From an uncultured Gammaproteobacteria bacterium (lineage in GTDB: Bacteria > Patescibacteriota > Patescibacteriia > JACQRZ01): a stretch of 64,000 nucleotides of DNA. This document shows, piece by piece, positions 873-40,046 of the stretch. The stretch is taken from assembly GCA_964621085.1 (NCBI GenBank), contig CAZUKY010000002.1, positions 22,637-86,636 on the forward strand, given 5' to 3'. The first letter of the stretch is position 1; each line of letters starts with the position of its first letter. The notes below the pieces were generated by a model. The model saw only the letters and a program-made list of their open reading frames with translations, was not told the origin of the DNA and ran no database searches. The position numbers were made by a program, and so were the translations under genes.

Positions 873-876
873 GTAT

Positions 877-904
877 GACTCAGGAATCAGGACTCAGGAA
901 TCAG
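877..904. repeat. Short tandem repeat, 14-nt unit gactcaggaatcag x2 plus a partial copy
   Basis: Direct tandem copies read in the sequence between the SBP gene stop and pilin-like gene 1. Confidence 0.6.
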
Positions 905-943
905 GAATTGCGGCCATCATTCCCGCGCCGCGGCTGGCGGCGG

Positions 944-2311
944 ATGGGTATCATGGCAGCAGGTGTCTTTTGCATCTTTGCGGTTTTTATTTTGACCACC
1001 GCTCTTCCTGTTGCGGCGTACAAGTCGACAGGCATCATTCCGAGCGAGTGCTACGGCAGTGGCAACTACGGATGGGGCGGGATCATGCTTCTGATCGGCA
1101 ACATCATCAAGTTCGCACTCGGCTTGTCCGGCACGATCGCGCTTCTGATGTTTTTTGTGGGCGGCTACTTCTGGATCTTCGGTGGCGCCTCGGAGAGCAA
1201 TATCAAAAAAGGCAAAGAGTTCATGACGAATGCCGTCATTGGACTTTTGATCGTGTACGGCAGCTGGGTCGGCGTGAACTACTTCGTCGCAACACTTACG
1301 ACGCCGGAGGGTCAGCGCATTCAGGCTCAGGGCCTGCTCTTCGGTCAGCCGTGGAACCAGTTCGCCCGAGAAACCGAGGTCTGTATCGAGATCGCCAGAA
1401 GCTCAAGAGGCGGCGCATCGATACCGGAGATGAAGGCACCGAAGCCAGCGGCACCAGCGGCGATTCCTGGCAATACTATTAATCACCAGATCACAACCTG
1501 TAAAAAAGAAGATATAAAGCCTGACGCAAAGCCGGCAGGGTCGAACTGCCGATCAAGTGCGTGCAATTGTAAGTCGGGTAGGTGCGACGCAACAGGCGTA
1601 TGTATGCCTGAAGAGATGTCTGAGCAAGTTGCGGAGAATTCGAGGGGTAACTGTTGCTATTTTACGGAAAACTCAGACGGTTCATTTAAGCGAGAGAGTC
1701 CCCGAGTCCACAACGCACAGGGATGTCGAGATCTCATAGCTAGAAGTAGCGATGCTTCATATAAGCGAGATGTCTACTTTTGTGCGACAGAGGCAGGAGC
1801 CGATCCAAAAAATGAAGCAATATGCTTTCAGTATCCGGCTCTCGGGGCATCAAAAACTGATTTTAATTCCGCTTACTTCAAGCAAGGACAGTGTCCGAAA
1901 AGGATAAATATCCGGGCCGCCGGCCTGCAACAACTGCCACCACCGGAGGCGACCGGAGTATGTTGTTATAACTTGAAGAAACGAGAGACTTCAGGAGTTA
2001 GTACAATAACAACCTATTCAGCAGAAGGTGTTAAAAGGACCAGAAATAATTGTTCTAAAGCACGCGTCCAGTCAGCGTACCCATCTGCCACCACTGTAAT
2101 CAACGGCACAAAAACAGACTTGAAAGTAGAAGATACAAGATACTGCTATAAGCATACGAATCCGGAAAGTATTGCCACATCTGCGTGCGGTTCTCAGGTC
2201 GACGCAGGGACGGGTAGTTTTATAGAAGGAGCTCTTGAAGGGGAAGTGAGAGGTAAAAAATGGTATCCTATAGACCAAGAGGCACAAGGAATCACCTGTG
2301 AGCCCCGATAG
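944..2311 (+). CDS. VirB2/TrbC-like pilin-family protein, paralog 1, with ~310-aa Cys-rich C-terminal extension
   Basis: First in-frame ATG after the upstream stop gives a signal-peptide-like N-terminus (MGIMAAGVFCIFAVFILTTALPVAA). The conserved two-helix core is IIKFALGLSGTIALLMFFVGGYFWIFGG..KKGKEFMTNAVIGLLIVYGSW. About 30 Cys lie in the C-terminal region. The ORF track's earlier start at 341 overlaps the upstream gene and is rejected. Confidence 0.5.
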   Translation: MGIMAAGVFCIFAVFILTTALPVAAYKSTGIIPSECYGSGNYGWGGIMLLIGNIIKFALGLSGTIALLMFFVGGYFWIFGGASESNIKKGKEFMTNAVIGLLIVYGSWVGVNYFVATLTTPEGQRIQAQGLLFGQPWNQFARETEVCIEIARSSRGGASIPEMKAPKPAAPAAIPGNTINHQITTCKKEDIKPDAKPAGSNCRSSACNCKSGRCDATGVCMPEEMSEQVAENSRGNCCYFTENSDGSFKRESPRVHNAQGCRDLIARSSDASYKRDVYFCATEAGADPKNEAICFQYPALGASKTDFNSAYFKQGQCPKRINIRAAGLQQLPPPEATGVCCYNLKKRETSGVSTITTYSAEGVKRTRNNCSKARVQSAYPSATTVINGTKTDLKVEDTRYCYKHTNPESIATSACGSQVDAGTGSFIEGALEGEVRGKKWYPIDQEAQGITCEPR

Positions 2312-2318
2312 GTATTAT

Positions 2319-2669
2319 ATGAGCACATGGAAAGTTCTTATTGCAGTGATTTTTTTCTTGACACTTCTTTTCGCAAGTGTCGACCCAATCCTCGCTGCAA
2401 AGCTCGACGATCCGCTGAATATCGGCGAGAACAACAAGGGTATCCAGATCGTCGTCGGGCGGTTTCTCAAAGGACTGCTGGGGATATCGGGTGTTGTGGT
2501 GCTGCTGATGTTTGTCCTCGGGGGCTTTCAACTCCTTACCTCGGCTGGCGACAAGAAAAAATACCAGCAAGGAACAACGACGCTCTGGTGGGCCGCCGTC
2601 GGCATCCTGACGGTATTCGGCAGCTACGCGATCGTCGAGTTCCTCCTACGATCGTTTATTTCAGGGTGA
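2319..2669 (+). CDS. VirB2/TrbC-like pilin-family protein, paralog 2
   Basis: Signal-peptide-like N-terminus (MSTWKVLIAVIFFLTLLFASV). Core is LLGISGVVVLLMFVLGGFQLLTSAGDKKKYQQGTTTLWWAAVGILTVFGSYAIVEFL. The ATG at 2298 is an alternative start. Confidence 0.5.
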   Translation: MSTWKVLIAVIFFLTLLFASVDPILAAKLDDPLNIGENNKGIQIVVGRFLKGLLGISGVVVLLMFVLGGFQLLTSAGDKKKYQQGTTTLWWAAVGILTVFGSYAIVEFLLRSFISG

Positions 2670-2670
2670 T

Positions 2671-3381
2671 ATGAGCACGAGTCTGAAAAAAGTTTCATTG
2701 ATCATTGCGACAGCATGGCTGATCGGAGGCTTTTCGTTTGTGTCTGCAGAGGAAAGTCCGTCGGGTAGTGGCACATTTTTTTCATCGGACGGCAATTTGG
2801 AACCTTCCAACCCTTATGAAAACGATTACCAATCAGGAGTTCCTTCGACTTTGCAAAGCGCTCCGCTTTCCAATCCTTCACAGGTAGGACAGCTGAACTT
2901 TTGTCCTGGCGCCGGTACCACGCGGGCCGATATCACGACCGAGCAGGCATGCAACGCGTACTGCACGCATGAGAACAACTTTGAAAGGATGGAGGGCTTC
3001 GGTCTGAACAAATCGAAGTATGCCGACGTCGACTGCTGCTGCTGGAAGGGAAGCGTCACATCGCAACCCAAAAAAGTCACCTGCAGCGAGCTGCCGGATG
3101 GCACGTGCGAGCTTGGCAATACATTGAAAGGAGACGTCGCCAAGACGCCGCAGGAGTTTGCGGGGCGGATCATCAAGAACTTCTTGGGGATCGTCGGCGT
3201 GCTTGCACTCGTTATGTTTATGTGGGGCGGCGCGCAGATCATGATGTCTCGCTTCGGCGGCGACGATAAGACAAAATACCAGCAAGGCATCCAGACGCTT
3301 GTCGGCGCAGGCGCGGGCCTCGTTGTGATCTTTGGCAGCTACGCGCTCGTCGAGTTTCTCTTCTCCCGCCTCTTGTCGTAA
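2671..3381 (+). CDS. VirB2/TrbC-like pilin-family protein, paralog 3, with N-proximal Cys-rich insert
   Basis: Signal peptide MSTSLKKVSLIIATAWLIGGFSFVSA. Cys-rich segment (CPGAG..CNAYCTHEN..DCCCWKG..CSELPDGTCELG) precedes the core IVGVLALVMFMWGGAQIMMSRFGGDDKTKYQQGIQTLVGAGAGLVVIFGSYALVEFL. The ATG sits 1 nt after the upstream stop, consistent with translational coupling. Confidence 0.55.
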   Translation: MSTSLKKVSLIIATAWLIGGFSFVSAEESPSGSGTFFSSDGNLEPSNPYENDYQSGVPSTLQSAPLSNPSQVGQLNFCPGAGTTRADITTEQACNAYCTHENNFERMEGFGLNKSKYADVDCCCWKGSVTSQPKKVTCSELPDGTCELGNTLKGDVAKTPQEFAGRIIKNFLGIVGVLALVMFMWGGAQIMMSRFGGDDKTKYQQGIQTLVGAGAGLVVIFGSYALVEFLFSRLLS

Positions 3382-3384
3382 AAG

Positions 3385-3417
3385 TATCCCCATTCCGTCC
3401 GGAAAATGTGGTATACT
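3385..3417 (+). promoter_or_regulatory. Putative promoter: TATCCCCA, 16-nt spacer, extended -10 TGGTATACT
   Basis: Read directly: tatcccca(3385-3392), 16 nt, tggtatact(3409-3417), upstream of paralog 4. The same bipartite motif recurs at 5884 and 13113. Confidence 0.45.
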
Positions 3418-3468
3418 AACCATTACGTGAATAACTTTTTAAGCAGAGCCTTTGGCTCAATCGATCGT

Positions 3469-3855
3469 ATGGCACTTCGCAGGCTTTTCGCAGCCCTCTC
3501 TCTGGCCGGCATTCTCCTCGTTCCCGCAGGCGTGTTGGCGCAGGATCTCGACCCGTCGGATCCTGAAACGTTCCGGAAATACAATCCGCCCGTTTCTTCG
3601 AACGTCGAGACGGATATCGGCATGATCGCGAAAAACATCATCGGCGTCGTTATGGGTTTCCTTGGACTGTTCGCCGTGGTCATCATTATCATTGCGGGTT
3701 TCAAGTGGATGACGGCGGGCGGTGATGAGAAAAAGGTTGAAGAGGCGAAAAACCAACTCATCCAAGGCGCGATCGGTCTTGTCATCATCATCGCCTCCTG
3801 GAGCATCGCCTTTTTCGTCATCGAGCAGATCGCAAAGGTTGTCGGTGGGCAGTAG
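3469..3855 (+). CDS. VirB2/TrbC-like pilin-family protein, paralog 4
   Basis: Start chosen at MALRRLFAALSLAGILLVPAGVLAQD (signal peptide), downstream of the predicted promoter. Core is IIGVVMGFLGLFAVVIIIIAGFKWMTAGGDEKKVEEAKNQLIQGAIGLVIIIASWSIAFFVIEQI. Confidence 0.5.
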   Translation: MALRRLFAALSLAGILLVPAGVLAQDLDPSDPETFRKYNPPVSSNVETDIGMIAKNIIGVVMGFLGLFAVVIIIIAGFKWMTAGGDEKKVEEAKNQLIQGAIGLVIIIASWSIAFFVIEQIAKVVGGQ

Positions 3856-3874
3856 GGCATAAAACAACCTCCCC

Positions 3875-4324
3875 ATGCTTTTTCAAAAGACAGCATTCCT
3901 CTTTTTCGCGTGGAGCGCTGTCTTTTTGTTTTTCTTCGCCCCCATCAGCGGCACATTTTCGTTTGTTGATGCAGCCGAGTCTTCATCCGGGCCCGTGAAT
4001 TTGAATGTCTCCGGCACGGGCCTGGAAGACACCGGCAAGGCGGCTGGATTCAAAGAGGGGCAAAACCAATTGCCAGGGTATATCGGCACCGTCCTCAAGG
4101 CATTTTTTGGCGTGTTGGGTATTATCTTCCTCGCCTTGACGATCTATGGCGGCCTGCGGTGGATGCTCTCGCAGGGAAACGACACCGAAATCAAAGGCGC
4201 CCGCGATACGATTATTAGCGCGGTTATCGGCATTGCCATCGTTGCAGCATCCTATGCGATTACAGACTTTGTCATCGACCAGCTTGTAAAAAGCGGGGTA
4301 AAACAGGAGATTATCGGCGAGTGA
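3875..4324 (+). CDS. VirB2/TrbC-like pilin-family protein, paralog 5
   Basis: Hydrophobic N-terminus. Core is FFGVLGIIFLALTIYGGLRWMLSQGNDTEIKGARDTIISAVIGIAIVAASYAITDFVIDQL. Confidence 0.5.
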   Translation: MLFQKTAFLFFAWSAVFLFFFAPISGTFSFVDAAESSSGPVNLNVSGTGLEDTGKAAGFKEGQNQLPGYIGTVLKAFFGVLGIIFLALTIYGGLRWMLSQGNDTEIKGARDTIISAVIGIAIVAASYAITDFVIDQLVKSGVKQEIIGE

Positions 4325-4325
4325 T

Positions 4326-4724
4326 ATGCAAATCCTTTCTTCCATCATTTCTCGTGGAGCCGTGTTTGTGGGCGTATTCTTGCCGGCAACGGCAGTTTTT
4401 GCGGACAATCCTCCTGCAAACACAATAAAAGGAAATCTGAAAGAGAGTGCTAGTAGCGTATTTTCGCAAAGCGAGATTGCTGTTGTCATCGGCTCGATCG
4501 TCACTGCGCTTCTTGGAGTTCTGGGTGTCGTTTTTTTGGCGCTGTTGATCTATGGCGGCTTTCTGTACATGACTGACCTGGGCGATGAGAAGCAGGCGGC
4601 AACAGCAAAGAAACTGATCACGAATGCAACCATCGGGTTGGTTATCGTTGCAGTCTCGTTCGCGGTGACGAAGTTCGTGCTGGATAGCATCGGCGGGGCT
4701 GCCGGAGTAAGTGGTAGTTTTTAA
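4326..4724 (+). CDS. VirB2/TrbC-like pilin-family protein, paralog 6
   Basis: Signal peptide MQILSSIISRGAVFVGVFLPATAVFA. Core is LLGVLGVVFLALLIYGGFLYMTDLGDEKQAATAKKLITNATIGLVIVAVSFAVTKFVL. Start lies 2 nt after the upstream stop. Confidence 0.55.
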   Translation: MQILSSIISRGAVFVGVFLPATAVFADNPPANTIKGNLKESASSVFSQSEIAVVIGSIVTALLGVLGVVFLALLIYGGFLYMTDLGDEKQAATAKKLITNATIGLVIVAVSFAVTKFVLDSIGGAAGVSGSF

Positions 4725-4732
4725 GACCGTAT

Positions 4733-5317
4733 ATGGCAGAAATAAAGAAAAGAACAGTAACGCGTGCTCGTACGGGCCGCAGCGGTCAGGCAACACGAAA
4801 GCCGCGCGTCGCGGCTCGTCCTGTGCGTCGGAAGCGGCCCGCGATCTCGGCGGAGAATATTCCACAACTCGAAGCGGTCATCATAGAAGAGGGGAGAAGT
4901 GCAGAGCCTGGCCACATCATCTTTATGCAGCGCACAGGCGTCGTTCTCAACCGTGCGTTTAGCGTCACGACGGCGACAGTCCTTTCCCTTTCCCTTATGC
5001 TGGGTGGCATGACAACGTTCGCCGAAGGACTCAAATTTAGTGACGTGCAAAACAATGTCGGCGCCGAACTTGATCTGGCGACAGTCATCGCGAATATCAT
5101 CAACGTATTACTTGGTTTACTGGGTGTCGTTTTTGTGTTATTTGTTATCTATGGCGGGTTTCTCTGGATGACAGACAAGGGCGATGAGAAGCAGGCAGAG
5201 CACGCGAAAGCCGTCCTGAAAAACTCCACCATCGGCGTTGTCATCGTTGCGCTTGCCATGGCGATTTCCAACTTTGTGATCAGCACTCTGGCAACCAAGG
5301 TCTTTACAGGCGAGTAA
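4733..5317 (+). CDS. VirB2/TrbC-like pilin-family protein, paralog 7 (possible internal start at 4925)
   Basis: Core is LLGLLGVVFVLFVIYGGFLWMTDKGDEKQAEHAKAVLKNSTIGVVIVALAMAISNFVISTL. The first 64 codons are strongly basic and atypical. The Met at 4925 (MQRTGVVLNRAFSVTTATVLSLSLML) would give a signal-peptide-like start. Confidence 0.45.
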   Translation: MAEIKKRTVTRARTGRSGQATRKPRVAARPVRRKRPAISAENIPQLEAVIIEEGRSAEPGHIIFMQRTGVVLNRAFSVTTATVLSLSLMLGGMTTFAEGLKFSDVQNNVGAELDLATVIANIINVLLGLLGVVFVLFVIYGGFLWMTDKGDEKQAEHAKAVLKNSTIGVVIVALAMAISNFVISTLATKVFTGE

Positions 5318-5370
5318 GACTTTCGTACGCTTTTTTTCAAAATAGCTATAATCTCAATAATTTTGATCAT

Positions 5371-5811
5371 ATGAAAAAAGCTATTGCACTTTTCGGCGCA
5401 ACTGCTGCGATCTGCTCGCTTCTTGTGCCGGTTGCCGTTTTCGGTGCCGAAACGACTGTTTCTGGTTCGCTCGGCGGATCGACCGCCCCAACTGGAATAG
5501 GACAGGCGCTCCAGGGCGGCGCAACCGCTGAACTGGAGAAAGAGGACCTGTTTAAGACAAAGACCGACTTCATCACGATTGTTGCCAATATTATCAGTGT
5601 TATTTTGGGCTTCCTCGGACTGATCCTGGTCGCCTTCATCATCTATGCCGGCTTCCTCTGGATGACGGACAACGGCGACGAGAAACGCACCGAAACAGCA
5701 AAGAATATTCTCCGCAACTCGATTATCGGCCTCATCATCATCGTGGTAGCGTATGCGATTTCAAACTTTGTCGTGAGTACGCTGGCAACTGACGTCTTGA
5801 AGCAGCAGTAA
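5371..5811 (+). CDS. VirB2/TrbC-like pilin-family protein, paralog 8
   Basis: Signal peptide MKKAIALFGATAAICSLLVPVAVFGA. Core is ILGFLGLILVAFIIYAGFLWMTDNGDEKRTETAKNILRNSIIGLIIIVVAYAISNFVVSTL. A TATAAT -10 lies at 5347-5352 upstream and a terminator follows downstream. Confidence 0.55.
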   Translation: MKKAIALFGATAAICSLLVPVAVFGAETTVSGSLGGSTAPTGIGQALQGGATAELEKEDLFKTKTDFITIVANIISVILGFLGLILVAFIIYAGFLWMTDNGDEKRTETAKNILRNSIIGLIIIVVAYAISNFVVSTLATDVLKQQ

Positions 5812-5832
5812 GGAAGGCAAAAAGAAAGTAAA

Positions 5833-5861
5833 AGAGCGTCTGCGTACAGACGCTCTTTTTC
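5833..5861 (+). terminator. Rho-independent terminator closing the pilin-like array
   Basis: agagcgtctg / cgta / cagacgctct 10-bp stem followed by a T-run (ttttc). Confidence 0.7.
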
Positions 5862-5954: not shown

Positions 5955-8900
5955 ATGCGGCATTTTCTCACATACCCCATGCCATCTCAATTTTCCAAAA
6001 GAGGATGGGCGCTCCTTACTGCAGTCGGAGCGATTTTTGCGTTGCTGACTGCAACCGCCTCGTCTACCTTCGCCCAACCCAAAAGCACCGAGGGTCCCAG
6101 CGCGACGCTCAATGAGCTGCTCGAGGATGAGACGCTCAAGAAGGTTATCAATCGCGGCGCGACCGATCAAAGCCGCAACGATGCGAGCGAGTACACGGGC
6201 CCGATCATCTTTGGGGGAAGCCTGGAGGTGCGCGGCGGGTTAAAGGGTGTACCAGACTCAGCCGATCCGAGTGATCCGAAGAAAAACAAGCTTTTGCTGC
6301 AAAAAGACGGCGGGAACGTCGGAATTGGAACGGCAACGCCGATAAACGCAGCGTTGGAAGTGGTTAAGGCGGGGGGCGTACAGGGACGGTTTGCGTACGA
6401 CGCCGATCGCTATATTGATATTATTGGGAATGTCGGCGTTAAGCTTCGCTCGGCAGACAGTCAGAACAACCCCCTTGAGATCGTAAAGGAGGGAAAGGGC
6501 GAGTTGGTTTTCAAGACCGGCCTCAATGGTGCAACAGCAGCCCGACTGATAATTCTTCAGGATGGCAACATTGGCATCGGGACGGCCGATCCGAAAAACA
6601 AACTGACGATTGGCTCAAGCAACAAGATTCAAGAGACGAAAGGGCTGGGCTTAGGCGCGGATCAGAATGTTGTCGAGTTGGTGCATTCAACGTACGGAAA
6701 CGGCTACGGATCAAAGCTCTACGGCCGCGATTTCGGTAATGGAGGGACGGGTCTTGCCATCGCTACGCGCGGAAATACGGGAACATGGACAGACGCCGTT
6801 ACGATCCGCGCAGATGACGCGACCGGCGGAAAGAACGGTAACGTCGGCATCGGCACGATTTCGCCGAATGCCGCACTTGCTATTTTTCGGAACGGCGTGA
6901 ATGCTGCGATCGACCTTGGATCGAAAGGCGAGAACGGCAACTATTGGTCGTTACGGCATGATGGCAGTGATGACAGACTCGCATTTTGGTTCAAAGATGG
7001 CGGCGATAAGTTGTCGCTTGGCAAAGACGGCGTGTTGTCTGGCAATGCATTCTCATCCCTTGCGAAGCAGTACGACTGGGTATCTTTGGGCGCGCGCACG
7101 ATGACGAGTCCCCAGCTTGCCGGCATTCCGCTCTGCGGCGCAAGCAACTTCAACAACCCTCTCGAACCGATTTGCTATACCGGCAGCGGCTCGAACTACG
7201 AGTTCAAGGAGCGCCAGGGCGTCGCCCATCCGAATACAAAACAGAAGGATGGCACGATCGCAACTCACGCACTTACTGCCGAGCGAAAGATCGCGATCGG
7301 TCTTCCTGGCTCGCAACAGAACGCTCTGTTGAACCCATCGTTGGAAATCAATCAGCCCTTCTACAGTCGCATCTTCCTGGGCGCGACGCAGTACCAACCA
7401 GAAGCCCAGCACGTGAAGATGGTCGTGGACGCCCGCGGCGACGGCCGCCTGGGCGGTGCGAACATGGGCCAGATCGGCACGATCTCGGGTCATCCCCTGA
7501 GCCTTTTGACAAATGACAGGGAACGCCTGCGCATCAGCGAATATGGCGGCGCAGAGATTTTTGCCTCGGAAAACAACACCAACGCTCTGGTCGTGAACGG
7601 CACGGTTCGCATCAAGAAGGTCGGTAACGAGCACGGCGGCTTGTATGTTGACGGCCCCGCTCAATTCCGCAACGGCATCACCTTCCCGCAGCTCGATGCA
7701 AATGGCAATCCAACCGCAACGAACCTCGCGTATATCAATCAGGCCGGCGACGCGATGTTTAGGAACCTACAGGTTAACGGCACCCTCACTGACAAGAGCG
7801 GCAATGAGTTTAAGCCCATCTGGTCTGGTGACGCAGCAAAGGCGTATCTTGCGAGCGGATTCGAAAACGCATCGGTCGGTATCGGTACGAATGATCCGAA
7901 GGCGAAGTTGCATGTGGAAGGTGATAATGGTCTTATGCTATCTCGAGCTGGCAACCAGACCTTGGGTGGAGGCCGTATAGGGCTTTTAGTCGGCTCCATC
8001 CTGAATGTTATTCAAAGCGCGGGTACTGGAAATTTGCATATATCCGGCGGCCTTGTCCCTGGTTCAGATGATCCTGTTCGCACTTCAGTAATTCTTCAGC
8101 CTACGGATGGTTATGTCGGTATAGGAACTATGCAACCGGGAGAAATACTCGCCTTGGGGGGCTCAAAGCCAGCGATTGATCTTGGCGCGGGTACTGAAAA
8201 CAGAGAGTTGAATGCAGGAAAAATCGCCTATCAGCGTTGGAGTGACGGTCTTGATATTGTTGGGGCGGGTGGCCCTAATGTAGCTGATCGAAAGATATAC
8301 TTTTATAATGAAGGAGGCGCTTTTTTTAACGGAGATGTGCAATTGAGCGCCACTAAAACATTACGGAGCTCAGGGCGAATGCATATCACGGGTGAAGAAA
8401 ACTTATATCTACTTAATAAGGGGGGAGTTGTAGTCAGTAATGCTTGGGGAGGAAACGGCAGTTTGACTGTAGATGGCAAAACCACTATCGGAAATGCAAG
8501 CACGAGAGGACAGGTGATGCTCGAGGTGCTTGGGAAAGCAGAGATTCATGGAGACGTGAACCTCAAACTCAGTAGCGCGAACAATCCGCTTGCGAAAAAG
8601 GGCTCGTATCTTGCCTACGATCCAAAGGTACAAGGTTTCGATATTGCAGAAAAATTTTCAACGGACTCCGATGTTGAGCCGGGGGATGTACTTGTTGCTG
8701 GTAAGAAGTCAAACACATTGACTCTATCCTCGAGACAATATCAAAAAGGCGCGATTGGCGTTGTTTCCACATCACCCGCTATCGTTTTTGAAGGAGGTGA
8801 GATAAAACTTGCCGCAGAAGCGCGGTTTTCGAAAGGGAAAAATCCCCCAGTAGCACTTTCAGGGCGTGTTCCAGTAAAGGTTACACTCGAAAATGGCCCG

Positions 8901-9131
8901 ATTCATCCTGGTGACTACCTCACGGCTTCATCAAGAAAGGGGTATGCGATGAAGGCAACCGAACCCGGCCCCATAATCGGCATCGCGCTTGAGTCCTATA
9001 CTTCGAGAACGTCAACAGAAAAGATCATGATGTTCGTGAATACTTCGGAAGGAAATACAGAACTGGTCACCCAGGAGTTATTGAAGCTTCGCAAGGAACT
9101 GGACGAGGTGAAGAAAAAGCTTCGAAAATAA
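5955..9131 (+). CDS. Phage tail-fibre-like secreted protein with C-terminal intramolecular-chaperone-like domain
   Basis: Signal peptide (..MPSQFSKRGWALLTAVGAIFALLTATASSTFAQP). The alternative start at 5979 is in frame. Five copies of the x-V-G-I-G-T-x-x-P-x-x-K/A-L motif (GNVGIGTATP, GNIGIGTADP, GNVGIGTISP, ASVGIGTNDP, GYVGIGTMQP) typical of tail-fibre-domain proteins. The C-terminus (PVALSGRVPVKV..GPIHPGDYLTASSRKGYAMKATEPGPIIGIALESY) resembles peptidase G2 / S74-type auto-processing chaperone domains. Terminal coiled coil is ELLKLRKELDEVKKKLRK. Confidence 0.55.
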   Translation: MRHFLTYPMPSQFSKRGWALLTAVGAIFALLTATASSTFAQPKSTEGPSATLNELLEDETLKKVINRGATDQSRNDASEYTGPIIFGGSLEVRGGLKGVPDSADPSDPKKNKLLLQKDGGNVGIGTATPINAALEVVKAGGVQGRFAYDADRYIDIIGNVGVKLRSADSQNNPLEIVKEGKGELVFKTGLNGATAARLIILQDGNIGIGTADPKNKLTIGSSNKIQETKGLGLGADQNVVELVHSTYGNGYGSKLYGRDFGNGGTGLAIATRGNTGTWTDAVTIRADDATGGKNGNVGIGTISPNAALAIFRNGVNAAIDLGSKGENGNYWSLRHDGSDDRLAFWFKDGGDKLSLGKDGVLSGNAFSSLAKQYDWVSLGARTMTSPQLAGIPLCGASNFNNPLEPICYTGSGSNYEFKERQGVAHPNTKQKDGTIATHALTAERKIAIGLPGSQQNALLNPSLEINQPFYSRIFLGATQYQPEAQHVKMVVDARGDGRLGGANMGQIGTISGHPLSLLTNDRERLRISEYGGAEIFASENNTNALVVNGTVRIKKVGNEHGGLYVDGPAQFRNGITFPQLDANGNPTATNLAYINQAGDAMFRNLQVNGTLTDKSGNEFKPIWSGDAAKAYLASGFENASVGIGTNDPKAKLHVEGDNGLMLSRAGNQTLGGGRIGLLVGSILNVIQSAGTGNLHISGGLVPGSDDPVRTSVILQPTDGYVGIGTMQPGEILALGGSKPAIDLGAGTENRELNAGKIAYQRWSDGLDIVGAGGPNVADRKIYFYNEGGAFFNGDVQLSATKTLRSSGRMHITGEENLYLLNKGGVVVSNAWGGNGSLTVDGKTTIGNASTRGQVMLEVLGKAEIHGDVNLKLSSANNPLAKKGSYLAYDPKVQGFDIAEKFSTDSDVEPGDVLVAGKKSNTLTLSSRQYQKGAIGVVSTSPAIVFEGGEIKLAAEARFSKGKNPPVALSGRVPVKVTLENGPIHPGDYLTASSRKGYAMKATEPGPIIGIALESYTSRTSTEKIMMFVNTSEGNTELVTQELLKLRKELDEVKKKLRK

Positions 9132-9232
9132 CAACCACTCATCTAATCCGCAGCATAAGGCGAAGCGATGACGTGATCCGTATATGAGCAAACGGAATCA
9201 GCGCTCTCGCTTCGCCTCTTCAGTAGAAAGGC

Positions 9233-12200
9233 ATGAAACCGTCAGCGCAAAATAATATATTCGCCAAGGGATTCCTCGGAATCCTTTTTGGCGTTTTAGC
9301 TACTGGTATTATCGGTTTCTTTCTCAACGTGGACCCAATTCAGGCCGCTTGGTGTATTACAAAAGGGGAAAAAACGGACTGCATCCCGAACTTCAATTAT
9401 ACAAGCGGCACGCCCGTCAATCAAACCTATCAAATCGAAGGAAAGACAGCTGATCCGAATAAGAAGTGGACGATAACGAACCAGCGTTCCGGCTATTGCA
9501 ATAATAATGTCTGTGTCAACGATCTTGGTCTGCCGAAATTTGAGATGGTTTCCCGAGGAGATGATAACGATACGGATGATAAGATCCAAATACGCCTGAG
9601 GGTCCAGGGCAACACCGGAAGCTATTGGTATGTACGAAAAAATAGTGGATACAGTAACGATGACGGGTACCCGAATACCGGAGATCCCCAAGAAGATCGA
9701 GGTCTTTCAAGGATCCAATACGATGGTATTCAAGGATTAAGAGGCGGGAATTACGCGCAAAATCTTTGTCCCGGGGATAATGGCAGTAGCTGGGACGACA
9801 AATTCGATGTCACTCAGGCAGGCGGATATTTTACTGCGGAAGCACCAGGACCGCGTACGTGCTATGACTCAAAGCTCGTCACTGTAACACATAAGGCGCC
9901 GCAGCAAGTTACAGACCCGAAACATCAGGACACATGGCGAGTGTATGTGTATAGCCCCCAGGATGGGATGATGCACTATACAGATCACACAGACGCTGGT
10001 ACTTATCCGAATGGGTGGAATGCCTATTGGAATAACTGCTGGAAGGGATGGCCATTAAATTGTGAAGGTCGCTGGGAGCAGCCACGCTATCCGGAGTGCG
10101 GCTGCGGCAAAAATGACCCCACTGAAAAGCTCTGTATAAGTTACGGCGTGGCCGGCTTACAATCAAACAATAACTGCTACGACTTCTTTAAAAAGCACAT
10201 CGGCTTTGGGACGAAAACAGAAAATTCTAAAACAGTGACAGAGATGAGGTACCGCGAGGTTACCACGGTGCCCCGATTTAGTCTCGCTACGCTCAACAAT
10301 AAAACTGCATATGCTCCCCATAGAGAAGGTGCGGTATGGCCTGACAATACCTACTTACTCTACTATGATACAAAGAATTTAAATCGAACGGACGGGGCAA
10401 AAAATAAGGTAAAGGCCGTTCAGAACGAGCAGCCGGTTTTTTCCGATCTTAACAAGTGCATTTTTGACCGTAAATTTCTTGAAGTAACACATCATGGTTC
10501 GTACACTGATTATGTTGTTCAAGCGGAAGGACTTCTCGGCAACAGGTTCATCGGATGGCTTTTGTTAAGCCGCGATGAACAAAATGCTATAAAACAAAAG
10601 ATTCTTACGCATGATAAAAGGTTCTACGACAGATCTATAAAAGACGCGCAAAATGAGGAACAAGTAGGGCTGGTACTCATGAGTTTTAAAGCCACCGATG
10701 CATTCAAAAATGACGTCATCAATTCCAAGTTACTAAAAGAGAAGGAGTTTAACGTCATATTCAAGGGAGTATCGCAAACCGTCCAGGCGGCTACCGAAGT
10801 CCCCAAAGAAAAAGATGAGGGCATTGCATGTCGCGCACAACTGCCCTCAGAGTTCGGCATGACCAGTACATATACGTACTTTACTGGTCCAGCTTCAATA
10901 CCGCCTGTTGAGATTCGTTCGTTTCGGGCGACAGCGGTCGGTCCGGATAGTGACTTTGTCGGCGAGACAACACAAGAGCTTACAAGTATTGGAAGCGGCG
11001 CTAATGTTCTCCCCGACCCAACTAATCGATTTTCGTCTGCGCGTGCTGACCTGAGTGCTGGCGCGGGCGAAGTATTGGATCTGCAGGCATACCAGGATAC
11101 CGTCAATCTCAGACTGGAGTGGCAAACTCCCTTTGCCGGCCGGGTACGGATTTTTCAAAAAGATGAGCGGCATGCGACGGCGACGGATCTCAGTCAGTTG
11201 GCGTGTTTGGGTAGATGGGGGGACATCATTGACAGTAATGACCCATGCCCGGCAAGGGGAGAAGTAACATCTGTACGGGAGCTTACGGTTGAGGGACTTC
11301 AGAGCAATAAGAACTATACGTTTTATATCGTCGTCGAAAATAAGCGCGGCGACAGCACCGCGCTACAGCCGACTCAGTGGGCTACAGCCGCCAGACTCGA
11401 CGTTACTGTCCGGCCGGCACCGATTGTCGTCACGAGCGCAACCGCGAAATACGTGAAAGGAAAGGAGAACTGCAAGAGTAATGCATTACCGGGCCAGACC
11501 AATACTCCGACCGAGTGCGCGGAAATTACCTGGAAAGTCGATGGTAGACCGACAGAGATAGTTCTTAAAGCGCCGAAAGGATGGAATAGGACAGTATGGA
11601 CAGACCATACATTCGCTTCGCACTCCTACACGTCAAACGGTGATTTTGACAGATATTTTCCTATTCATACAAGCGAAATCAATCGTTATCGCTCAAATTT
11701 TATCCTCATTGCAAAACGCGGCGATATTACATCGGCCGAGTTTCCTTTTGAGCTTCGAGGCGTGCCGCGCGATCCTATGACAATCGCGGCAGAAGGATGG
11801 AAGGATGGCAACAATGTTCGTGACAAGTCTCTTTTTGAGGCGATTCTCAATACCGACTGCGATGAGTGGTGGCCAGGTTTAGATTTGATATGCAGAGGAA
11901 CGACATTTAGCAGTATTTTTAATATCGCTCGTGAGTCAATATCGTCATCGCTCGCCGGTGCACTGGCAGTAGTGACTGGAGGTGCCGGCGCACTCCTTAA
12001 GCCGATTGTCGATTTTGTTCTAAGGGTTGTTGAGCCGATTGCCTTTGGATTGGTTGGTATGATAGGAAATTTAGTGCAGGCGAACAACGAGAATCTTATT
12101 GACTGGAAGAAGGACATTAATTGGCAGCCATTTCTCGGTTCCTTCGGACTGAGTTTCGCAGTCAATTCATTTACCGGCGTGCTTCAGGCGATCTTTGGAA

Positions 12201-13069
12201 AATGTGCGGCAGCGCCCCTCGTTGGTGCAATTCACCAGGTTATTGATCTTGTCGGCACGCTCCTCAGAATCGCTGGAATTAATTTAGGCTGTCCGGATGG
12301 TGAAGAAAATAGCTGCGAAATGGGAGCAGATATGGGGAAGACAATGGGAATAATTGCCGGTGAAACAGTTTATTATGCAGTAACCGGCGATAACTCTTGG
12401 AAGCCAGAGGTCTGCCCTGGTGAAAAACCTCCGGAAGAGGAAGAAGATCCGTGTACTCCGAAGCCAGGCGAACCGTTCGATTACGCGAGATCGCAAGAGT
12501 GTTTTGGAGAGAAGTATCTGCCCCAACGCTATGGATGCAACGAAGAAAATAAGTGCGTGCCCGCTGAAGCCGGTACCTTTGCTGATCCGTTATGCAGTAA
12601 CACATGCGATGTGTCAAAAATTGTCGAGAAGAAGGTAACGGAAATAGTAAAAGAAGACACAAAATCAATATTTGACTGCTCGGGTACTGTGGATGGAACC
12701 GAAGTCGGTCAAGGTTATGGCGGTGAGCGATATGCTAACGAATACCAGTATAGAACGCGCTCAAAGAAAGCGGTTGCCGATGCGCTTATGTCAGCATATT
12801 ATGTTGCGACGTGTGGTAAATTTTGCCTGAGAAAGGACGCGGCTCTTAGTTGTTCTGAGGATCTCTACAACAATAATAAAAACAATTTCGATTCAATATT
12901 TAATACCGCAGATTCGTATATTGATGACAAAAATAGACGGAATCTAAGTACCAAGGTGCATGATAATCTGTTCCGTGATACGTTTGATGGTCTCATGAAA
13001 GAGGCAGCTTCATGCGGCATTAAAGATGTTACTAGGTTTATTCCCGTCCCCTGCGCATTCGCACAATAA
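9233..13069 (+). CDS. Large Cys-rich membrane-anchored hypothetical protein (1278 aa)
   Basis: N-terminal TM helix (FAKGFLGILFGVLATGIIGFFLNV). Many Cys throughout. Internal Gly/Ala-rich hydrophobic segment (AGALAVVTGGAGALLKPIVDFV..FGLVGMIGNL). Visibly AT-richer than flanking genes. No family recognised. Confidence 0.5.
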   Translation: MKPSAQNNIFAKGFLGILFGVLATGIIGFFLNVDPIQAAWCITKGEKTDCIPNFNYTSGTPVNQTYQIEGKTADPNKKWTITNQRSGYCNNNVCVNDLGLPKFEMVSRGDDNDTDDKIQIRLRVQGNTGSYWYVRKNSGYSNDDGYPNTGDPQEDRGLSRIQYDGIQGLRGGNYAQNLCPGDNGSSWDDKFDVTQAGGYFTAEAPGPRTCYDSKLVTVTHKAPQQVTDPKHQDTWRVYVYSPQDGMMHYTDHTDAGTYPNGWNAYWNNCWKGWPLNCEGRWEQPRYPECGCGKNDPTEKLCISYGVAGLQSNNNCYDFFKKHIGFGTKTENSKTVTEMRYREVTTVPRFSLATLNNKTAYAPHREGAVWPDNTYLLYYDTKNLNRTDGAKNKVKAVQNEQPVFSDLNKCIFDRKFLEVTHHGSYTDYVVQAEGLLGNRFIGWLLLSRDEQNAIKQKILTHDKRFYDRSIKDAQNEEQVGLVLMSFKATDAFKNDVINSKLLKEKEFNVIFKGVSQTVQAATEVPKEKDEGIACRAQLPSEFGMTSTYTYFTGPASIPPVEIRSFRATAVGPDSDFVGETTQELTSIGSGANVLPDPTNRFSSARADLSAGAGEVLDLQAYQDTVNLRLEWQTPFAGRVRIFQKDERHATATDLSQLACLGRWGDIIDSNDPCPARGEVTSVRELTVEGLQSNKNYTFYIVVENKRGDSTALQPTQWATAARLDVTVRPAPIVVTSATAKYVKGKENCKSNALPGQTNTPTECAEITWKVDGRPTEIVLKAPKGWNRTVWTDHTFASHSYTSNGDFDRYFPIHTSEINRYRSNFILIAKRGDITSAEFPFELRGVPRDPMTIAAEGWKDGNNVRDKSLFEAILNTDCDEWWPGLDLICRGTTFSSIFNIARESISSSLAGALAVVTGGAGALLKPIVDFVLRVVEPIAFGLVGMIGNLVQANNENLIDWKKDINWQPFLGSFGLSFAVNSFTGVLQAIFGKCAAAPLVGAIHQVIDLVGTLLRIAGINLGCPDGEENSCEMGADMGKTMGIIAGETVYYAVTGDNSWKPEVCPGEKPPEEEEDPCTPKPGEPFDYARSQECFGEKYLPQRYGCNEENKCVPAEAGTFADPLCSNTCDVSKIVEKKVTEIVKEDTKSIFDCSGTVDGTEVGQGYGGERYANEYQYRTRSKKAVADALMSAYYVATCGKFCLRKDAALSCSEDLYNNNKNNFDSIFNTADSYIDDKNRRNLSTKVHDNLFRDTFDGLMKEAASCGIKDVTRFIPVPCAFAQ

Positions 13070-13217: not shown

Positions 13218-16200
13218 GTGCCCGTATTTTTGAGACATCATCGGCTGGTTTTCGCTGCCGGGGTTTTGGCCCTTGGCGGGTTTTTTGGCGTTCCCGTACT
13301 TGCGAATGCTCTTAGCGTCATGGTGGCAACGCCATTTCGAATCAGTACGCCTATCAACGGAACGGTGGTCACACTGCCGGAAGCGAAAGTGACGGTTCCA
13401 ATTACTGTTGTGTCGCCAGGCGACCAATATGCTGGCGTTACGGTTACCGCAGAGATCCGTTCGGCAAGCGGTGATGTGCGGACGCTTCCGATGAGTGTTT
13501 CATCGACCGGTGCAGCCGGAACGACATTTTCTGCGCAGTGGACTGCCACGACCGTCGGGAGCTACCTGATCACTGCGCGCGCAACGCAGTCCGGGTATAA
13601 TGACCGGGTCAGTGCGCCGGTTCGCGTGAATATCATCTCTCCGTCCGGAAACGCATCAGGGCGCATTTCCGGCGCTTTTACGCAGAGTGCCGCCAAGCAA
13701 GCCGGAAAATTCGACGTCATTCCTGGAACAGATGCAGGTGCAATTCCTGGTGACTACCGCCGGCCGCGCATTGGGCCCGTTCTGCCGCCGATCTTTGAGT
13801 TCAGTATTTCGGAACCGCTTGAACAGAAAGTGATGATGGATGTCAGTCTTTACGGCGCCGAAGCGCGAAAAGCCGCGGCAGAGAACTCGCGATTCCTGCT
13901 TGATTGGAGTGCAAATACTATTGCTCGCGAGCTGTCTGCCGGTGCACAGGAACGCATTCCGATCTATCGGAATGGCGCTGCTATTGTGCTCTCTGTTGGG
14001 CAAGTCAACCAAAATGCATACATCGATCTCTACTCCGCGCCGTACTATGACGGAGTTGCCGATGATATCGAGGATCCGATAAAATCAGTTCCCGGTTTTC
14101 AGAAACTGAAGGCCTGTCCGAATGCAGTCTCGTGCATTTTTTCTTTGGGGACAGCCAAGAACGGCCGGCATATCGTAGTCGCTCGTGTCAGTGCGAATGG
14201 CATCTCGCGCTTCTCATATCGTCTTGTCGAGGTGCGCGGGCAGAATGCGGCGCCGATTGTTGCAATGAGTCTTCTGAGCGATCAGAAACCATTTCTCCTG
14301 CCGCAAAAATTGAACATCCGAGTAGATGTGGCAGATGCTGACTCGGATCGCAATGCCGCTGGCAGCCCCATCGAGCGAGTGATTATTTTTGCGGGAGACA
14401 AAAAGATTGCCGAACTCGAAAAGCCAACACAAAATATTAATACGCGCACGGAAAAATTCAATTCTCTTTTTAAAGATCTCGATTTTTCGACGTACGCCAC
14501 ACTGCAGACGTATGCGGCCGAGTGGAAGGTTGAAAGCGGCCGCCATGACCTACGCGCGGTCGCAATCGACACCGAAGGCATGCCGTCAGATCCCTTTGTT
14601 ATTAAGGATTTCATTGCAACCGAGCGGCCGAAAGTTTCTGATCTTATCGTCGTCGGAAAGGAGCGTCCGTCGGATAGCGGTCCGTGGATCGTGCAAGAAG
14701 GAGAGGAGTTCACGTTGCAAGCAAAAGCGACAGACGACGGACGCATCGTGTCGATGGCATTTACGAGCGAACAAAAGGCGGCAGGCGGCGGATCCGCCTC
14801 GCCAGTTTCCGGTGAAGACAATCTGTATCGTCTCACCGTAAAGGATCGCGCCGCCGGCGCTGAATACGTATACGCCGGCATTGCACAGGATAACGAGGGG
14901 GTTACCAACGATCCTCTGCCGCGGATGACCGTCAAGATGAATAAGAAGCCGGATATCCGAGATCTGTCCCGTGATGCCGAGGAGTATCAGCCGAATACAA
15001 AAGTAACGCTTGCCGCACTTGCAAAGGACATCGATAGCGCGCTTTCATCCGTCGAGCTCGTTGATGCAAAGACAGGAGCCCGCATCGATTTCAAAGAAAA
15101 TATCGGCGCTTCAAAAAATACCGATTACGCCTACCGCTTCGAGTGGGTGCCGCCATGGAATGAAGATGCGAAAAATGTCGATCAGAGCGCGATGCACTCG
15201 CTTAAGCTCATCGTCCGGGATGCGGACGGCGGCGTTCGCGAGGCGACCTTCCCGACGGTGACCGTTCGCAACCGTGCGCCGTCCGTCACCAAATTTTCCG
15301 CCACAAAGGCGGTGTATCAGGATACCGAGCCCGTCGTCGTATCACTTGAGGCAATCGATAACGACAGTGGCATGAACGGCGTCACATTTGTCTTGAAAAA
15401 CACCGCCGGAACACTCAGTAAAAATTTCATTCTCAATGCCCCGACGCGGCCGGTGTCAGGCATTGATGTACGACGAGGCGGGGTGTATGAGGCCGAGATA
15501 AAAAATCTTGCGCCGGACTCCTACATCATAACGGCGATCGCTTCGGATATCGCTTCGCCCGCAAAAGCATCACCCGAACAGGTGGTGAGTGTCCGTGTCA
15601 ACGCGCCGCCGACGGCAGAAGGCCTGACGGTTTCCACTCCGCTCGTCCAACCGAACGTGCCCGCGACTTTTTCGATTATCGCGCGGGACAGCGACAGCGA
15701 CGTGAAAAGCGACAGTCGGATCGGGTCGGTGATGCTGCTGCGCGATGGTGTGGAAATCGCCGTCATGCGTCTGCGCGCTGGCAGTGGCGACACCTATGAA
15801 GCGAGCTGGACGCCGACCCTGTGGTCGCCAGACATTCCCGATCAGGCACAGCAGTATATCTCGAAAGGTTTTTCCGTACGGATCGAGGATACGGATAGGC
15901 GGCGCATCGAAAAAAAGACAGACATAACAGTAACCGTCAAGAATGATCCGCCTGCGCTTGTGCCGGATGGCAAGCAGCTGACCGAGCGGAGCGTCTATCA
16001 GAAGGGCGAGACCGTGACACTCTCGGCCGCTGTCAGTGATGCGGATAGCGGCGTTGCGCGCCTTCAGTTTTTCGCGAATGGGACGGCGATTCATACCATC
16101 GACAATCCTTCCCAAAAAGTTTCGTTCCAGTGGAAGCCGACTCCCGGAAGTTATGCCCTGACGGCAACGGCGACCGATCGCGCGAAACCGGTCAAGACGG

Positions 16201-21761: not shown

Positions 21762-21772
21762 GGAGTGAATAT

Positions 21773-39967: not shown

Positions 39968-40046
39968 AAGCACGGCCGTTTTTCGCTACGATAAGAGCAT
40001 TGAATTCCGTCTGAAAAGAAGCGGATTTTTGAGCTTTACCTGGATT

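Follow-up and report, generated by a model that had tools for sequence, protein, structure and literature searches.

The closest described system is that of the mosaic adhesive trimer (MAT) fibres of Bdellovibrio bacteriovorus, among them Bd2133, Bd1334 and Bd3182 (PDB 8OND, 8OML and 8OJN), which carry a signal peptide, are displayed at the cell surface and bind prey glycans, and which in 13 of 21 cases have their S74 chaperone cleaved off (Caulton et al., 2024, Nat Microbiol, PMC10769870). The MATs share with S74-terminated fibres a capping-loop consensus, V-G-x-G/N-x-x-x-P-x-x-x-L, and phage examples of such capping-loop S74 fibres include T5 pb1 and the K1F endosialidase (both cited in PMC10769870). 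Phage fibres of this type belong to the virion and have fibritin and lysozyme genes as neighbours; they carry no signal peptide, and their terminal domain is S74. A second point of reference is the pre-neck appendage protein gp12 of phage phi29, whose domain D4 (MEROPS G2, PF11962; structures 3GQH and 3SUC) is the known relative of the C-terminal domain discussed below, and whose body, unlike the present fibre, is an enzymatic beta-helix spike attached to the virion. A third comparison is offered by the Phage_cement_2 (DUF2190) proteins, XM1 gp53, HFTV1 and the base formed by phi29 gp8.5, all of which are stand-alone capsid proteins of 120-160 aa.

The gene considered here begins with ATG and lies in a window of 64,000 nucleotides (the whole stretch of DNA analysed) from a Patescibacteria chromosome, the RecA of which is 78-80% identical to Uhrbacteria RecA and 81% identical to its nearest sequences. 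An independent gene call on the public contig SRR5011273_26943 gives the identical gene, and the protein clusters with no other in a set of 15 billion. We propose, with a probability of roughly 0.6, that its product is a cell-made, phage-like trimeric fibre adhesin folded from a self-cleaving C-terminal chaperone. Like the MATs it is chromosomal rather than phage-borne, is about 1000 aa long, has a predicted N-terminal signal sequence and has a stalk of repeated modules that bear the capping-loop motif, and like most of them it is predicted to end in a self-cleaving chaperone. It differs from them in that this chaperone is a gp12/G2 beta-tulip with a coiled coil rather than S74, in that its central 255 residues have no detectable counterpart, and in that the organism is a Patescibacterium, presumed to be a single-membrane episymbiont, rather than a two-membrane predator. 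The protein joins a MAT-like stalk to a gp12-type chaperone, both parts being of known kinds. Within the gene, the following features were delineated:

5955..9131, + strand: whole gene, precursor of a MAT-like fibre, 1058 aa (ORF and translation)
5955..6074, + strand: predicted Sec signal peptide or signal anchor, residues 1-40 (sequence reading and hydropathy scan)
6243..7034, + strand: repeat block 1, three beta-helix modules with capping loops at nt 6318, 6570 and 6843 (motifs, PHROG, tblastn, phmmer, unit alignment)
7035..7799, + strand: central stretch of ~255 residues lacking the motif (no Pfam, PDB or homologue coverage)
7800..8294, + strand: repeat block 2, two capping-loop modules at nt 7875 and 8115 (motifs, unit alignment, five-unit profile)
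8295..8639, + strand: predicted to form the distal tip once the fibre is mature, residues 781-895 (position between the last module and the predicted cleavage site)
8640..9047, + strand: tandem beta-tulip intramolecular-chaperone domain of gp12/Peptidase G2 type, residues 896-1031
8640..8651, + strand: predicted autocleavage site F895|D896 with predicted catalytic Asp and Glu, D896-I-A-E899 (alignment to gp12)
9057..9128, + strand: C-terminal amphipathic heptad helix, residues 1035-1058, net charge +3 (AlphaFold, heptad register)

Searches of the whole protein or its thirds against Pfam, NCBIfam and PDB sequences returned nothing useful, and the signal came only from profiles of relatives and of internal repeats. 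At the N-terminus, sequence reading reveals a K15-R16 n-region, a hydrophobic core of 20 residues and T-F-A|Q at residues 38-41, and the core is the sole stretch of the protein in which a Kyte-Doolittle 19-mer exceeds 1.6, in line with the signal peptide claimed in the initial annotation; the same segment may instead serve as an uncleaved anchor. No relatives were found for residues 43-100, the region corresponding in position to a beta-rich domain, conserved and ~130 aa long, that stands right behind the signal peptide in all 21 B. bacteriovorus MATs (PMC10769870), and no cell-surface anchor was identified in the fibre protein, which counts against the main reading.

The five motifs of VGIGTxxP type that had been claimed are all present, as [VI]G[IV]GT..P starting at residues 122, 206, 297, 641 and 721 (nt 6318, 6570, 6843, 7875 and 8115), and they correspond to the capping-loop consensus. 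Shuffling of the sequence (n=20000) gave a mean of 0.001 motifs and a maximum of 1, and the motif was not found outside the fibre gene in the six frames of the whole window. The tail-fibre-like character of the body is further borne out by matches of PHROG tail-fibre families to residues 119-317 (E=7e-9 and 2e-8), by a tblastn match (E=5e-13) to gp114 of Synechococcus phage S-CRES2, an S74-terminated fibre to which it is 35% identical over 209 aa and with which it has both the capping-loop stalk modules and these PHROG families in common, and by phmmer matches of repeat block 1 to the Bd2133 and Bd1334 structures. When a profile built from the alignment of all five units was run against the PDB, its matches were limited to Bdellovibrio MAT fibres: the best was Bd2133 (E=1.5e-8), followed by 8oml and 8ojn, described as 'cell wall surface anchor family protein' (E=4.4e-4 and 8.6e-4), and by the weaker 8on4 and 8ol4 (E=0.012 and 0.2); these four entries are assigned to Bd1334, Bd3182 and Bd2439 according to the data-availability list of the MAT paper (PMC10769870). 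For the body as a whole (residues 43-895) there were no relatives for an alignment, coverage being restricted to the motif region, and the AlphaFold single-sequence model of these residues was unusable (pLDDT 31.7), so that the trimeric beta-helix proposed for the stalk is drawn from homology at the level of the motif. The ~255 central residues remain without explanation, a point that, like the motif-level basis of the stalk, weighs against our main reading, and a search for relatives of residues 781-895 found none.

The C-terminal peptide quoted in the initial annotation is present in the translation, and the resemblance to intramolecular chaperone and auto-cleavage domains suggested there is supported by both profile and structure. 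The C-terminal domain has a tandem beta-tulip fold like that of D4 in gp12, its structural match to the gp12 chaperone is clearly ahead of all others, and Foldseek also paired it, at up to 36% identity, with tail-fibre and 'preneck appendage' proteins of phages. Residues D896-I-A-E899 align with D692-F-A-E695 of phi29 gp12 (DIAEKF against DFAEYF), and the crystallised cleaved gp12 fragment 3GQH begins at the aligned Asp, while entry 3SUC reads DFAQYF. D692 and E695 are the catalytic residues of gp12. The D and E of the motif are invariant in 38 of 38 relatives, and DxAE occurs in 288 of the 304 domain copies (95%) found in the top 150 relatives. The earlier advice had been to look for Ser-Lys or Asp catalytic residues, and what was found is a predicted catalytic Asp/Glu pair, with no SDxxxK at the domain boundary. 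Identity to gp12 is ~20%, and the protein lies below Pfam detection: the HMM check that had been suggested gave a match of the fibre protein to neither Peptidase_S74 nor Peptidase_G2, PF11962 (cut-off 25 bits) failing to match even the C-terminus alone at E<=10. However, PF11962 matches 14 of the 38 relatives at E<=1 (best 1.8e-6), and a distant relative, P0084, scores 37.1 bits, above the cut-off. With no Pfam match of the protein's own, its link to the G2 family is transitive and structural. The family profile run against PDB sequences aligned with the cleaved gp12 fragment, starting at its residue 1. This favours the chaperone reading; the modest E-value (3.4e-4) tells against the main reading.

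The domain is followed by a basic helix, described earlier as a coiled coil, with which nothing in gp12 aligns. AlphaFold models the last 24 residues (1035-1058) as a single helix (model residues 156-178); they hold one heptad register with T, V, L, L, L, V and L at the a/d positions, and they contain 8 K/R against 5 D/E. This helix is likely a trimeric coiled coil, and a coiled-coil-like tail of ~30 aa likewise comes after the domain in many relatives, which belong to Elusimicrobia and further phyla.

Two other identities were considered for the C-terminus. It could be a chaperone of the endosialidase type, Peptidase S74 with Ser-Lys catalysis, as the capping-loop motif is typical for S74-terminated fibres and the best phage match of the stalk carries the annotation 'chaperone of endosialidase'. 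However, with no match to PF13884, no S74 among the fold matches and no SDxxxK at the boundary, this identity was rejected, and we regard it as extremely improbable. Alternatively, the beta-tulip module may stay on the fibre for good as a tip for trimerisation or binding and possibly be the adhesive end itself, for which the cement and decoration proteins of phages, the base of the phi29 head fibre and the non-S74 tips of MATs could serve as models. This we consider unlikely: the DxAE motif aligns to the cleavage and catalytic residues of gp12 and is held at the 38/38 and 95% levels given above, a constraint that a purely structural tulip would not need, and among known structures the gp12 chaperone is clearly the closest. 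We know of no DxAE cleavage motif in phage cement or decoration proteins, and no capsid gene occurs in the scanned part of the window.

The genomic setting is chromosomal and non-phage. Upstream on the same strand stand eight VirB2-like pilin genes; seven upstream ORFs match Pfam T4SS_pilin, six of them above the cut-off, ORF 341-2311 matching weakly at 23.5 bits, and the eighth, ORF 2319-2669, has a weak T4SS_pilin match on its public gene call, while a local pilin HMM matches 8/8 of these ORFs. Downstream lie giant surface proteins of 1278, 2847 (Big_7) and 756 aa. The flanks of pilin-like and surface-protein genes reported initially were thus recovered. Genes around them encode NDH2, PGI, SPP, a solute-binding protein, IleRS, RuvA, FemAB, rpoB, FtsK, RecA, EF-P, S6, UvrD and others. 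The absence of phage genes nearby also held: none was found among 34 larger ORFs scanned or called between a point 10 kb upstream (which reaches 4 kb outside the window), where an upstream prophage had been the refuting case, and window position ~50.6 kb, or 44.7 kb past the start of the gene, with rpoC (33409-37419) and the ORFs at 51-64 kb lying outside the scan.

These observations bear on whether the gene could be a relic of a degraded prophage or of another phage-derived element, such as a tailocin fibre. Both of its modules are common to phage tail proteins, and the 3' third of the gene together with the start of the next gene is lower in GC. However, the stretch from -10 kb to about +45 kb yielded no integrase, terminase, capsid, tail-tube, baseplate or lysis genes, housekeeping genes make up the flanks, an N-terminus resembling a signal peptide is foreign to virion proteins, and hundreds of relatives reside within large secreted proteins of cellular genomes; a relic origin is therefore highly improbable. 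The AT-richer 3' third noted earlier is real, with GC of 0.548, 0.563 and 0.472 and GC3 of 0.61, 0.66 and 0.43 in successive thirds. Yet the fall begins ~570 nt ahead of the C-terminal domain and runs into the next gene to about 10750, and since the low-GC tract thus misses the domain boundary and crosses the gene boundary, the drop does not decide for or against the 'modular acquisition' read from it.

The pilin array raises a further scenario, by which the fibre would be a tip adhesin or accessory of a pilus or T4SS-like apparatus formed from the adjacent VirB2-like pilins. The fibre gene lies directly 3' of the array on the same strand, a survey of T4SS in Patescibacteria found no PrgB-type adhesin (PMC12102498), and a possible interplay of adhesion and pili was noted in the MAT paper (PMC10769870). 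However, the array and the fibre gene are separated by a strong hairpin:

5830..5859, no strand assigned: 13-bp perfect palindromic hairpin with A-run and T-run flanks, after the last pilin gene and ahead of the fibre gene

This hairpin is likely a bidirectional terminator, so that the fibre gene would be transcribed apart from the pilin array. Further, of 80 other loci encoding the C-terminal domain none has a pilin-like ORF within 6 kb by an HMM that recovers all eight pilins of the window, so that no conserved linkage of the domain to pilin arrays was seen among them, and VirB4 and other T4SS parts were absent among the ORFs covered by the general scan. A role at a pilus tip is accordingly improbable.

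The C-terminal domain itself is widespread. A profile search found it in 34,310 protein clusters, in most of which Pfam leaves the domain unlabelled, and these are abundant in Patescibacteria, Elusimicrobia and Omnitrophota. A scan of representative bacterial genomes (GTDB) with a 7-sequence alignment gave 343 relatives, many in Patescibacteria, which are usually large proteins with signal-peptide-like N-termini, and the capping-loop motif is also present in 29 of 63 relatives. Several loci of Saccharibacteria are among those whose homologues bear the motif. A scan of IMG/VR viral contigs with narrow patterns returned no relatives, which, owing to the narrowness of the patterns and to the presence of the domain in GenBank phages and BFVD, is not read as absence from phages; in PA5oct gp359, a virion protein encoded beside a tail-fibre gene, the domain stands at the C-terminus. 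In many relatives, by comparison, the domain is internal and duplicated and is followed by 250-690 more residues, an arrangement that fits poorly with a terminal, throw-away chaperone.

Taken together, these data allow a model for the assembly of the fibre to be put forward, with the chaperone reading as its basis. The precursor would leave the cell via Sec by means of its N-terminal signal sequence, and outside the membrane the C-terminal modules of three chains, each a tandem beta-tulip with a short coiled coil, would join first. This assembly may fix the register of the chains and template the folding of an intertwined beta-helix stalk comprising five capping-loop modules like those of Bdellovibrio MAT fibres. 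The C-terminal module would then cut itself off at F895|D896, with D896 and E899 acting like D692 and E695 of gp12, thereby freeing a 163-residue fragment and baring the mature tip (about residues 781-895), which may bind a surface ligand on another cell, probably the host of the presumed episymbiont. A role as a cell-surface adhesin is thus probable by analogy with the MAT fibres, which offer a direct experimental precedent for a domesticated-fibre adhesin. phi29 gp12 folds in the cytoplasm, whereas the present protein is predicted to be exported, and release of the gp12 domain was reportedly found by Xiang et al. in 2009 to require ATP. ATP is absent outside the cell, and the need for it in phi29 thus stands as an observation against the main reading.

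A chaperone-protease familiar from phage spikes, that of the phi29 gp12 type, appears to be in wide cellular use on exported proteins, on which ATP-dependent release cannot operate as described; if the present reading is true, such fibres would mature extracellularly without ATP, unlike phi29 gp12. For annotation, the family of the C-terminal domain is very large and largely unseen by Pfam. It is conceivable, and we put this forward tentatively, that fibres ending in a gp12-type beta-tulip form a large, unnamed class of autoprocessing surface proteins, which in ultrasmall episymbionts may include the long-sought adhesins for host recognition. To our knowledge, type IV pili alone have so far been implicated in host recognition and attachment by Patescibacteria. 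The survey of their T4SS loci found no PrgB-type adhesin (PMC12102498). The present fibre may be a concrete candidate host adhesin, akin to the prey-recognition fibres of Bdellovibrio.

The ORF at 5955..9131 on the + strand translates into a fibre protein of 1058 aa, and an independent call on a public contig of run SRR5011273 yields the same gene. A pattern search places [VI]G[IV]GT..P at residues 122, 206, 297, 641 and 721, against a mean of 0.001 copies in 20000 shuffles of the protein, which bears out the five tail-fibre-type motifs of the initial annotation; no further copy is found in any of the window's six reading frames. The whole protein matches nothing in Pfam, NCBIfam or the PDB sequences, and in a collection of 5.8 billion proteins its clear relatives are confined to its C-terminal ~140 residues. 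The motif region is matched by two PHROG tail-fibre families (E=7e-9 and 2e-8) and, at 35% identity over 209 aa (E=5e-13), by gp114 of Synechococcus phage S-CRES2, whose gene is annotated as a fibre with S74, the endosialidase-type chaperone (PF13884), and adjoins fibritin and lysozyme genes. A phmmer search of PDB sequences with residues 101-332 returned two chains, both mosaic adhesive trimer (MAT) fibres of Bdellovibrio bacteriovorus. Searched with a profile built from the five repeat units, the PDB gave Bd2133 first (E=1.5e-8), then Bdellovibrio chains named 'cell wall surface anchor family protein' at E=4.4e-4, 8.6e-4, 0.012 and 0.2 (Bd1334, Bd3182 and Bd2439 according to the entry list of PMC10769870); the other rows were weak ones to ribosomal uS5 at E>0.1. 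MAT fibres are ~1000-aa products of chromosomal genes, carry a signal peptide and fold into intertwined trimeric beta-helix fibres on the predator surface, where they serve prey recognition, with Proteus glycans bound by Bd2439; a self-cleaving S74 chaperone forms the C-terminus in 13/21 and other tip domains in 8/21 (Caulton et al. 2024, PMC10769870). The motif of the initial annotation is their 'capping loop' consensus, V-G-G/N-pi-X-X-P-X-X-X-L, and the table of such fibres in other organisms holds predators and one Omnitrophica bacterium, with Patescibacteria absent (PMC10769870). The protein studied here is likewise chromosomally encoded and has capping-loop stalk modules, but its terminal chaperone is of the type of gp12, the phi29 pre-neck appendage, and is joined to a coiled coil, whereas those 13 MATs end in S74. 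Because AlphaFold, run on the single sequence of residues 43-895, gave no usable model (pLDDT 31.7), we infer a trimeric beta-helix for the stalk from module-level homology. The central ~255 residues (about 361-615) found no match in Pfam, PDB or homologue searches.

The relatives outline a domain at residues 891-1031, with the conserved pattern G-x-D-[LIVF]-A-E ... EPGDVV ... GVVST-PG ... VAL-GRVPVKV--ENG-I--GD-L--S--PGYAMKA ... IG-ALE, in which D896 and E899 are invariant across 38 aligned sequences. Against the PDB, the profile of this alignment finds gp12 (E=3.4e-4), and the match begins with the first residue of the cleaved C-terminal fragment that was crystallised (3GQH, DFAEYF...), a stretch that reads W690-S691-D692-F-A-E695 in full-length gp12 and DFAQYF in entry 3SUC. 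Both Peptidase_S74 and Peptidase_G2 (PF11962) had been put forward as models for checking; G2 fails on the query itself and matches 14/38 relatives (best E=1.8e-6), a distant one reaching 37 bits against a 25-bit cut-off. An S74 chaperone at the C-terminus is all but ruled out, as Pfam searches of query and relatives and the fold matches gave no S74 signal anywhere. The claimed resemblance to a phage intramolecular chaperone is supported by the gp12 profile match and the G2 matches. The overall interpretation of the initial annotation, modular acquisition aside, is supported too, and the chaperone type is now given as G2 rather than S74. With the alignment as input, AlphaFold models residues 880-1058 at pLDDT 90, and Foldseek matches among viral models, with identities of up to 36%, include 'preneck appendage', tail-fibre and tropism-determinant proteins. 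The virion protein gp359 of Pseudomonas phage PA5oct, encoded beside a long-tail-fibre gene, carries the domain as its C-terminus. The final 24 residues form one helix in the AlphaFold model; its heptads are clean (a/d = T,V,L,L,L,V,L) and its net charge is +3, consistent with the basic coiled coil proposed earlier. Below significance, the domain profile also touches the Aureispira grappling-hook protein GhpA (residues 3720-3757, E=0.037) and capsid protein chain 8h2i_cU (named P22; residues 1125-1188, E=0.085). The latter would fit the reported similarity between D4, the C-terminal autochaperone domain of gp12, and Vp260 on condition that entry 8H2I is the PBCV-1 capsid, as we take it to be. 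As cited elsewhere, the 2009 gp12 paper reportedly describes D4 as sequence-similar to PBCV-1 Vp260 and 'some bacterial adhesion proteins'.

The 3' third of the fibre gene is AT-richer, as had been noted with modular acquisition as a possible cause, with a GC of 0.47 after 0.55-0.56 in the first two thirds (GC3 by thirds 0.61, 0.66 and 0.43). The low-GC tract sets in ~570 nt before the C-terminal domain and runs on into the next gene, to ~10750, and is therefore not a mark of the domain boundary. At ~8000-10750 the GC is 0.42-0.49, against a window mean of 0.536, a span that takes in the last third of the fibre gene, the gap behind it and 1.5 kb at the start of its downstream neighbour. The surroundings are as follows.

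Features around the fibre gene
Beyond the window start, upstream of the pilin array: NDH2, PGI, signal-peptide peptidase, solute-binding protein
875-5811, +: VirB2-like pilin array, eight tandem divergent genes (Pfam T4SS_pilin PF18895 and local HMM)
5830-5859, between pilin array and fibre gene: perfect 13-bp inverted repeat, AAAAGAGCGTCTG-CGTA-CAGACGCTCTTTT, with A-/T-runs at its sides
9233-13069, +: 1278-aa protein directly after the fibre gene, no family match, singleton cluster
13218-21761, +: 2847-aa protein, Big_7 and other Ig-like repeats
21746-24016, +: 756-aa protein, C-terminus weakly matching the Cys-rich CGP-CTERM family
Beyond the large-protein genes, in order: IleRS, RuvA, FemAB, rpoB, 1336-aa ORF, FtsK, RecA, EF-P, S6, UvrD

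The pilin-like and surface-protein flanks described earlier are thus eight pilin genes upstream and three large proteins downstream, the latter forming with the fibre gene a surface-protein island of ~18 kb. T4SS_pilin scores above cut-off in 6/8 pilin genes and weakly in 2/8, the local HMM matches 8/8, and the first gene (875-2311; 478 aa) is far larger than the other seven. The 1336-aa ORF after rpoB occupies the expected rpoC position. The RecA of the window shares 78-80% identity with named Candidatus Uhrbacteria sequences and 81% with unnamed sequences, the remaining named matches being Patescibacteria or Parcubacteria; Patescibacteria have been described as carrying arrays of 2-11 VirB2-like genes, which are essential to a cultured strain (PMC12102498). 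RecA and pilin array together identify the window as chromosomal DNA of a Patescibacteria (CPR) bacterium. Phage structural, replication and integration genes were not seen from -10 kb to ~+45 kb (the 1336-aa ORF and those at 51-64 kb lay outside the scan), in agreement with the initial annotation, and it is highly improbable that the fibre gene is a prophage relic, given this non-phage context and the signal-peptide-like N-terminus of its product. That the fibre is a pilus or type IV secretion (T4SS) accessory is a little less remote, yet still improbable: the hairpin at 5830-5859 looks, from its sequence, like a bidirectional intrinsic terminator separating the array from the fibre gene, and adjacency to pilins is not conserved in the family, as 0/80 loci encoding the domain have a pilin-like ORF within 6 kb by the HMM that finds 8/8 window pilins. 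VirB4 or other T4SS parts did not turn up among the ORFs scanned. A 294-aa ORF without Pfam match at 46970-47854 (-), weakly matched by the window-pilin HMM (E=4.7e-5), may be a distant ninth pilin-like protein remote from the array. The ORF at 39807-40754 (+) is a fusion of HTH_25 and Glucodextran_B-like domains; it shares ~160 nt with the 3' end of ftsK, and its true start is probably further downstream.

From these data the following mechanism seems the most likely. At the fibre N-terminus K15-R16 precede a 20-residue hydrophobic core, and T-F-A|Q follows at residues 38-41, strong hydrophobicity being confined to this segment in a hydropathy scan, and Sec would export the precursor. Three chains would trimerise first at the tulip-plus-coiled-coil C-terminal module, which would then template the intertwined beta-helix stalk from the C-terminus towards the N-terminus. 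The precursor may cut itself at F895|D896, using D896 and E899 as catalytic residues, and the freeing of a 163-residue fragment would expose a mature tip (residues ~781-895). The N-terminal part would hold the fibre on the cell as a putative adhesin that binds a ligand on another cell. Release of gp12 is reportedly ATP-dependent, which cannot apply outside the cell and hence to an exported fibre. Cell-encoded phage-like fibres with self-cleaving chaperones are already known from the MAT fibres (2024) and, in eukaryotes, MyRF. What is new is how the parts are put together: a gp12-type chaperone, not one of the S74 type, plus a coiled coil caps a MAT-type stalk, in a probably exported protein of a Patescibacterium, with a domain branch invisible to Pfam.

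Against 1.84 billion representative proteins, the domain profile gives 34,310 matches at E<=1e-3 and 12,188 at E<=1e-30. Scanning a single genome of each species by pattern yields 343 relatives, in many Patescibacteria lineages, Elusimicrobia, Omnitrophota, Planctomycetes, uncultured Gammaproteobacteria and Myxococcota, one of the last on a complete Sorangium chromosome. Among 63 reconstructed ORFs, complete N-termini are mostly signal-peptide-like, the capping-loop motif occurs in 29 (up to 20 copies), and the domain is followed by 3-7 aa, by a coiled coil of ~30 aa like that of the query or by a 250-690-aa extension. The beta-tulip module could instead be a permanent, uncleaved tip, a reading favoured by its similarity to phage cement proteins and by the internal, duplicated copies in relatives; this is unlikely, though not negligibly so, since the DxAE motif (D896-I-A-E899 in the query) is near-universal, being kept in 288/304 domain copies among the best 150 of the 34,310 relatives. 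The best family matches are giant proteins of 1000-5700 aa, usually with two tandem copies and ~250 residues after the last. Two copies ~120 aa apart occur in 136/150 best-scoring relatives; both copies keep DxAE, and in most of these relatives the domain is internal, with 250-690 residues after it that are often Pro/Glu/Thr-rich. We know of no system that cuts giant proteins via two such tandem domains; should cleavage take place at both copies, each of these proteins would end up as three pieces.
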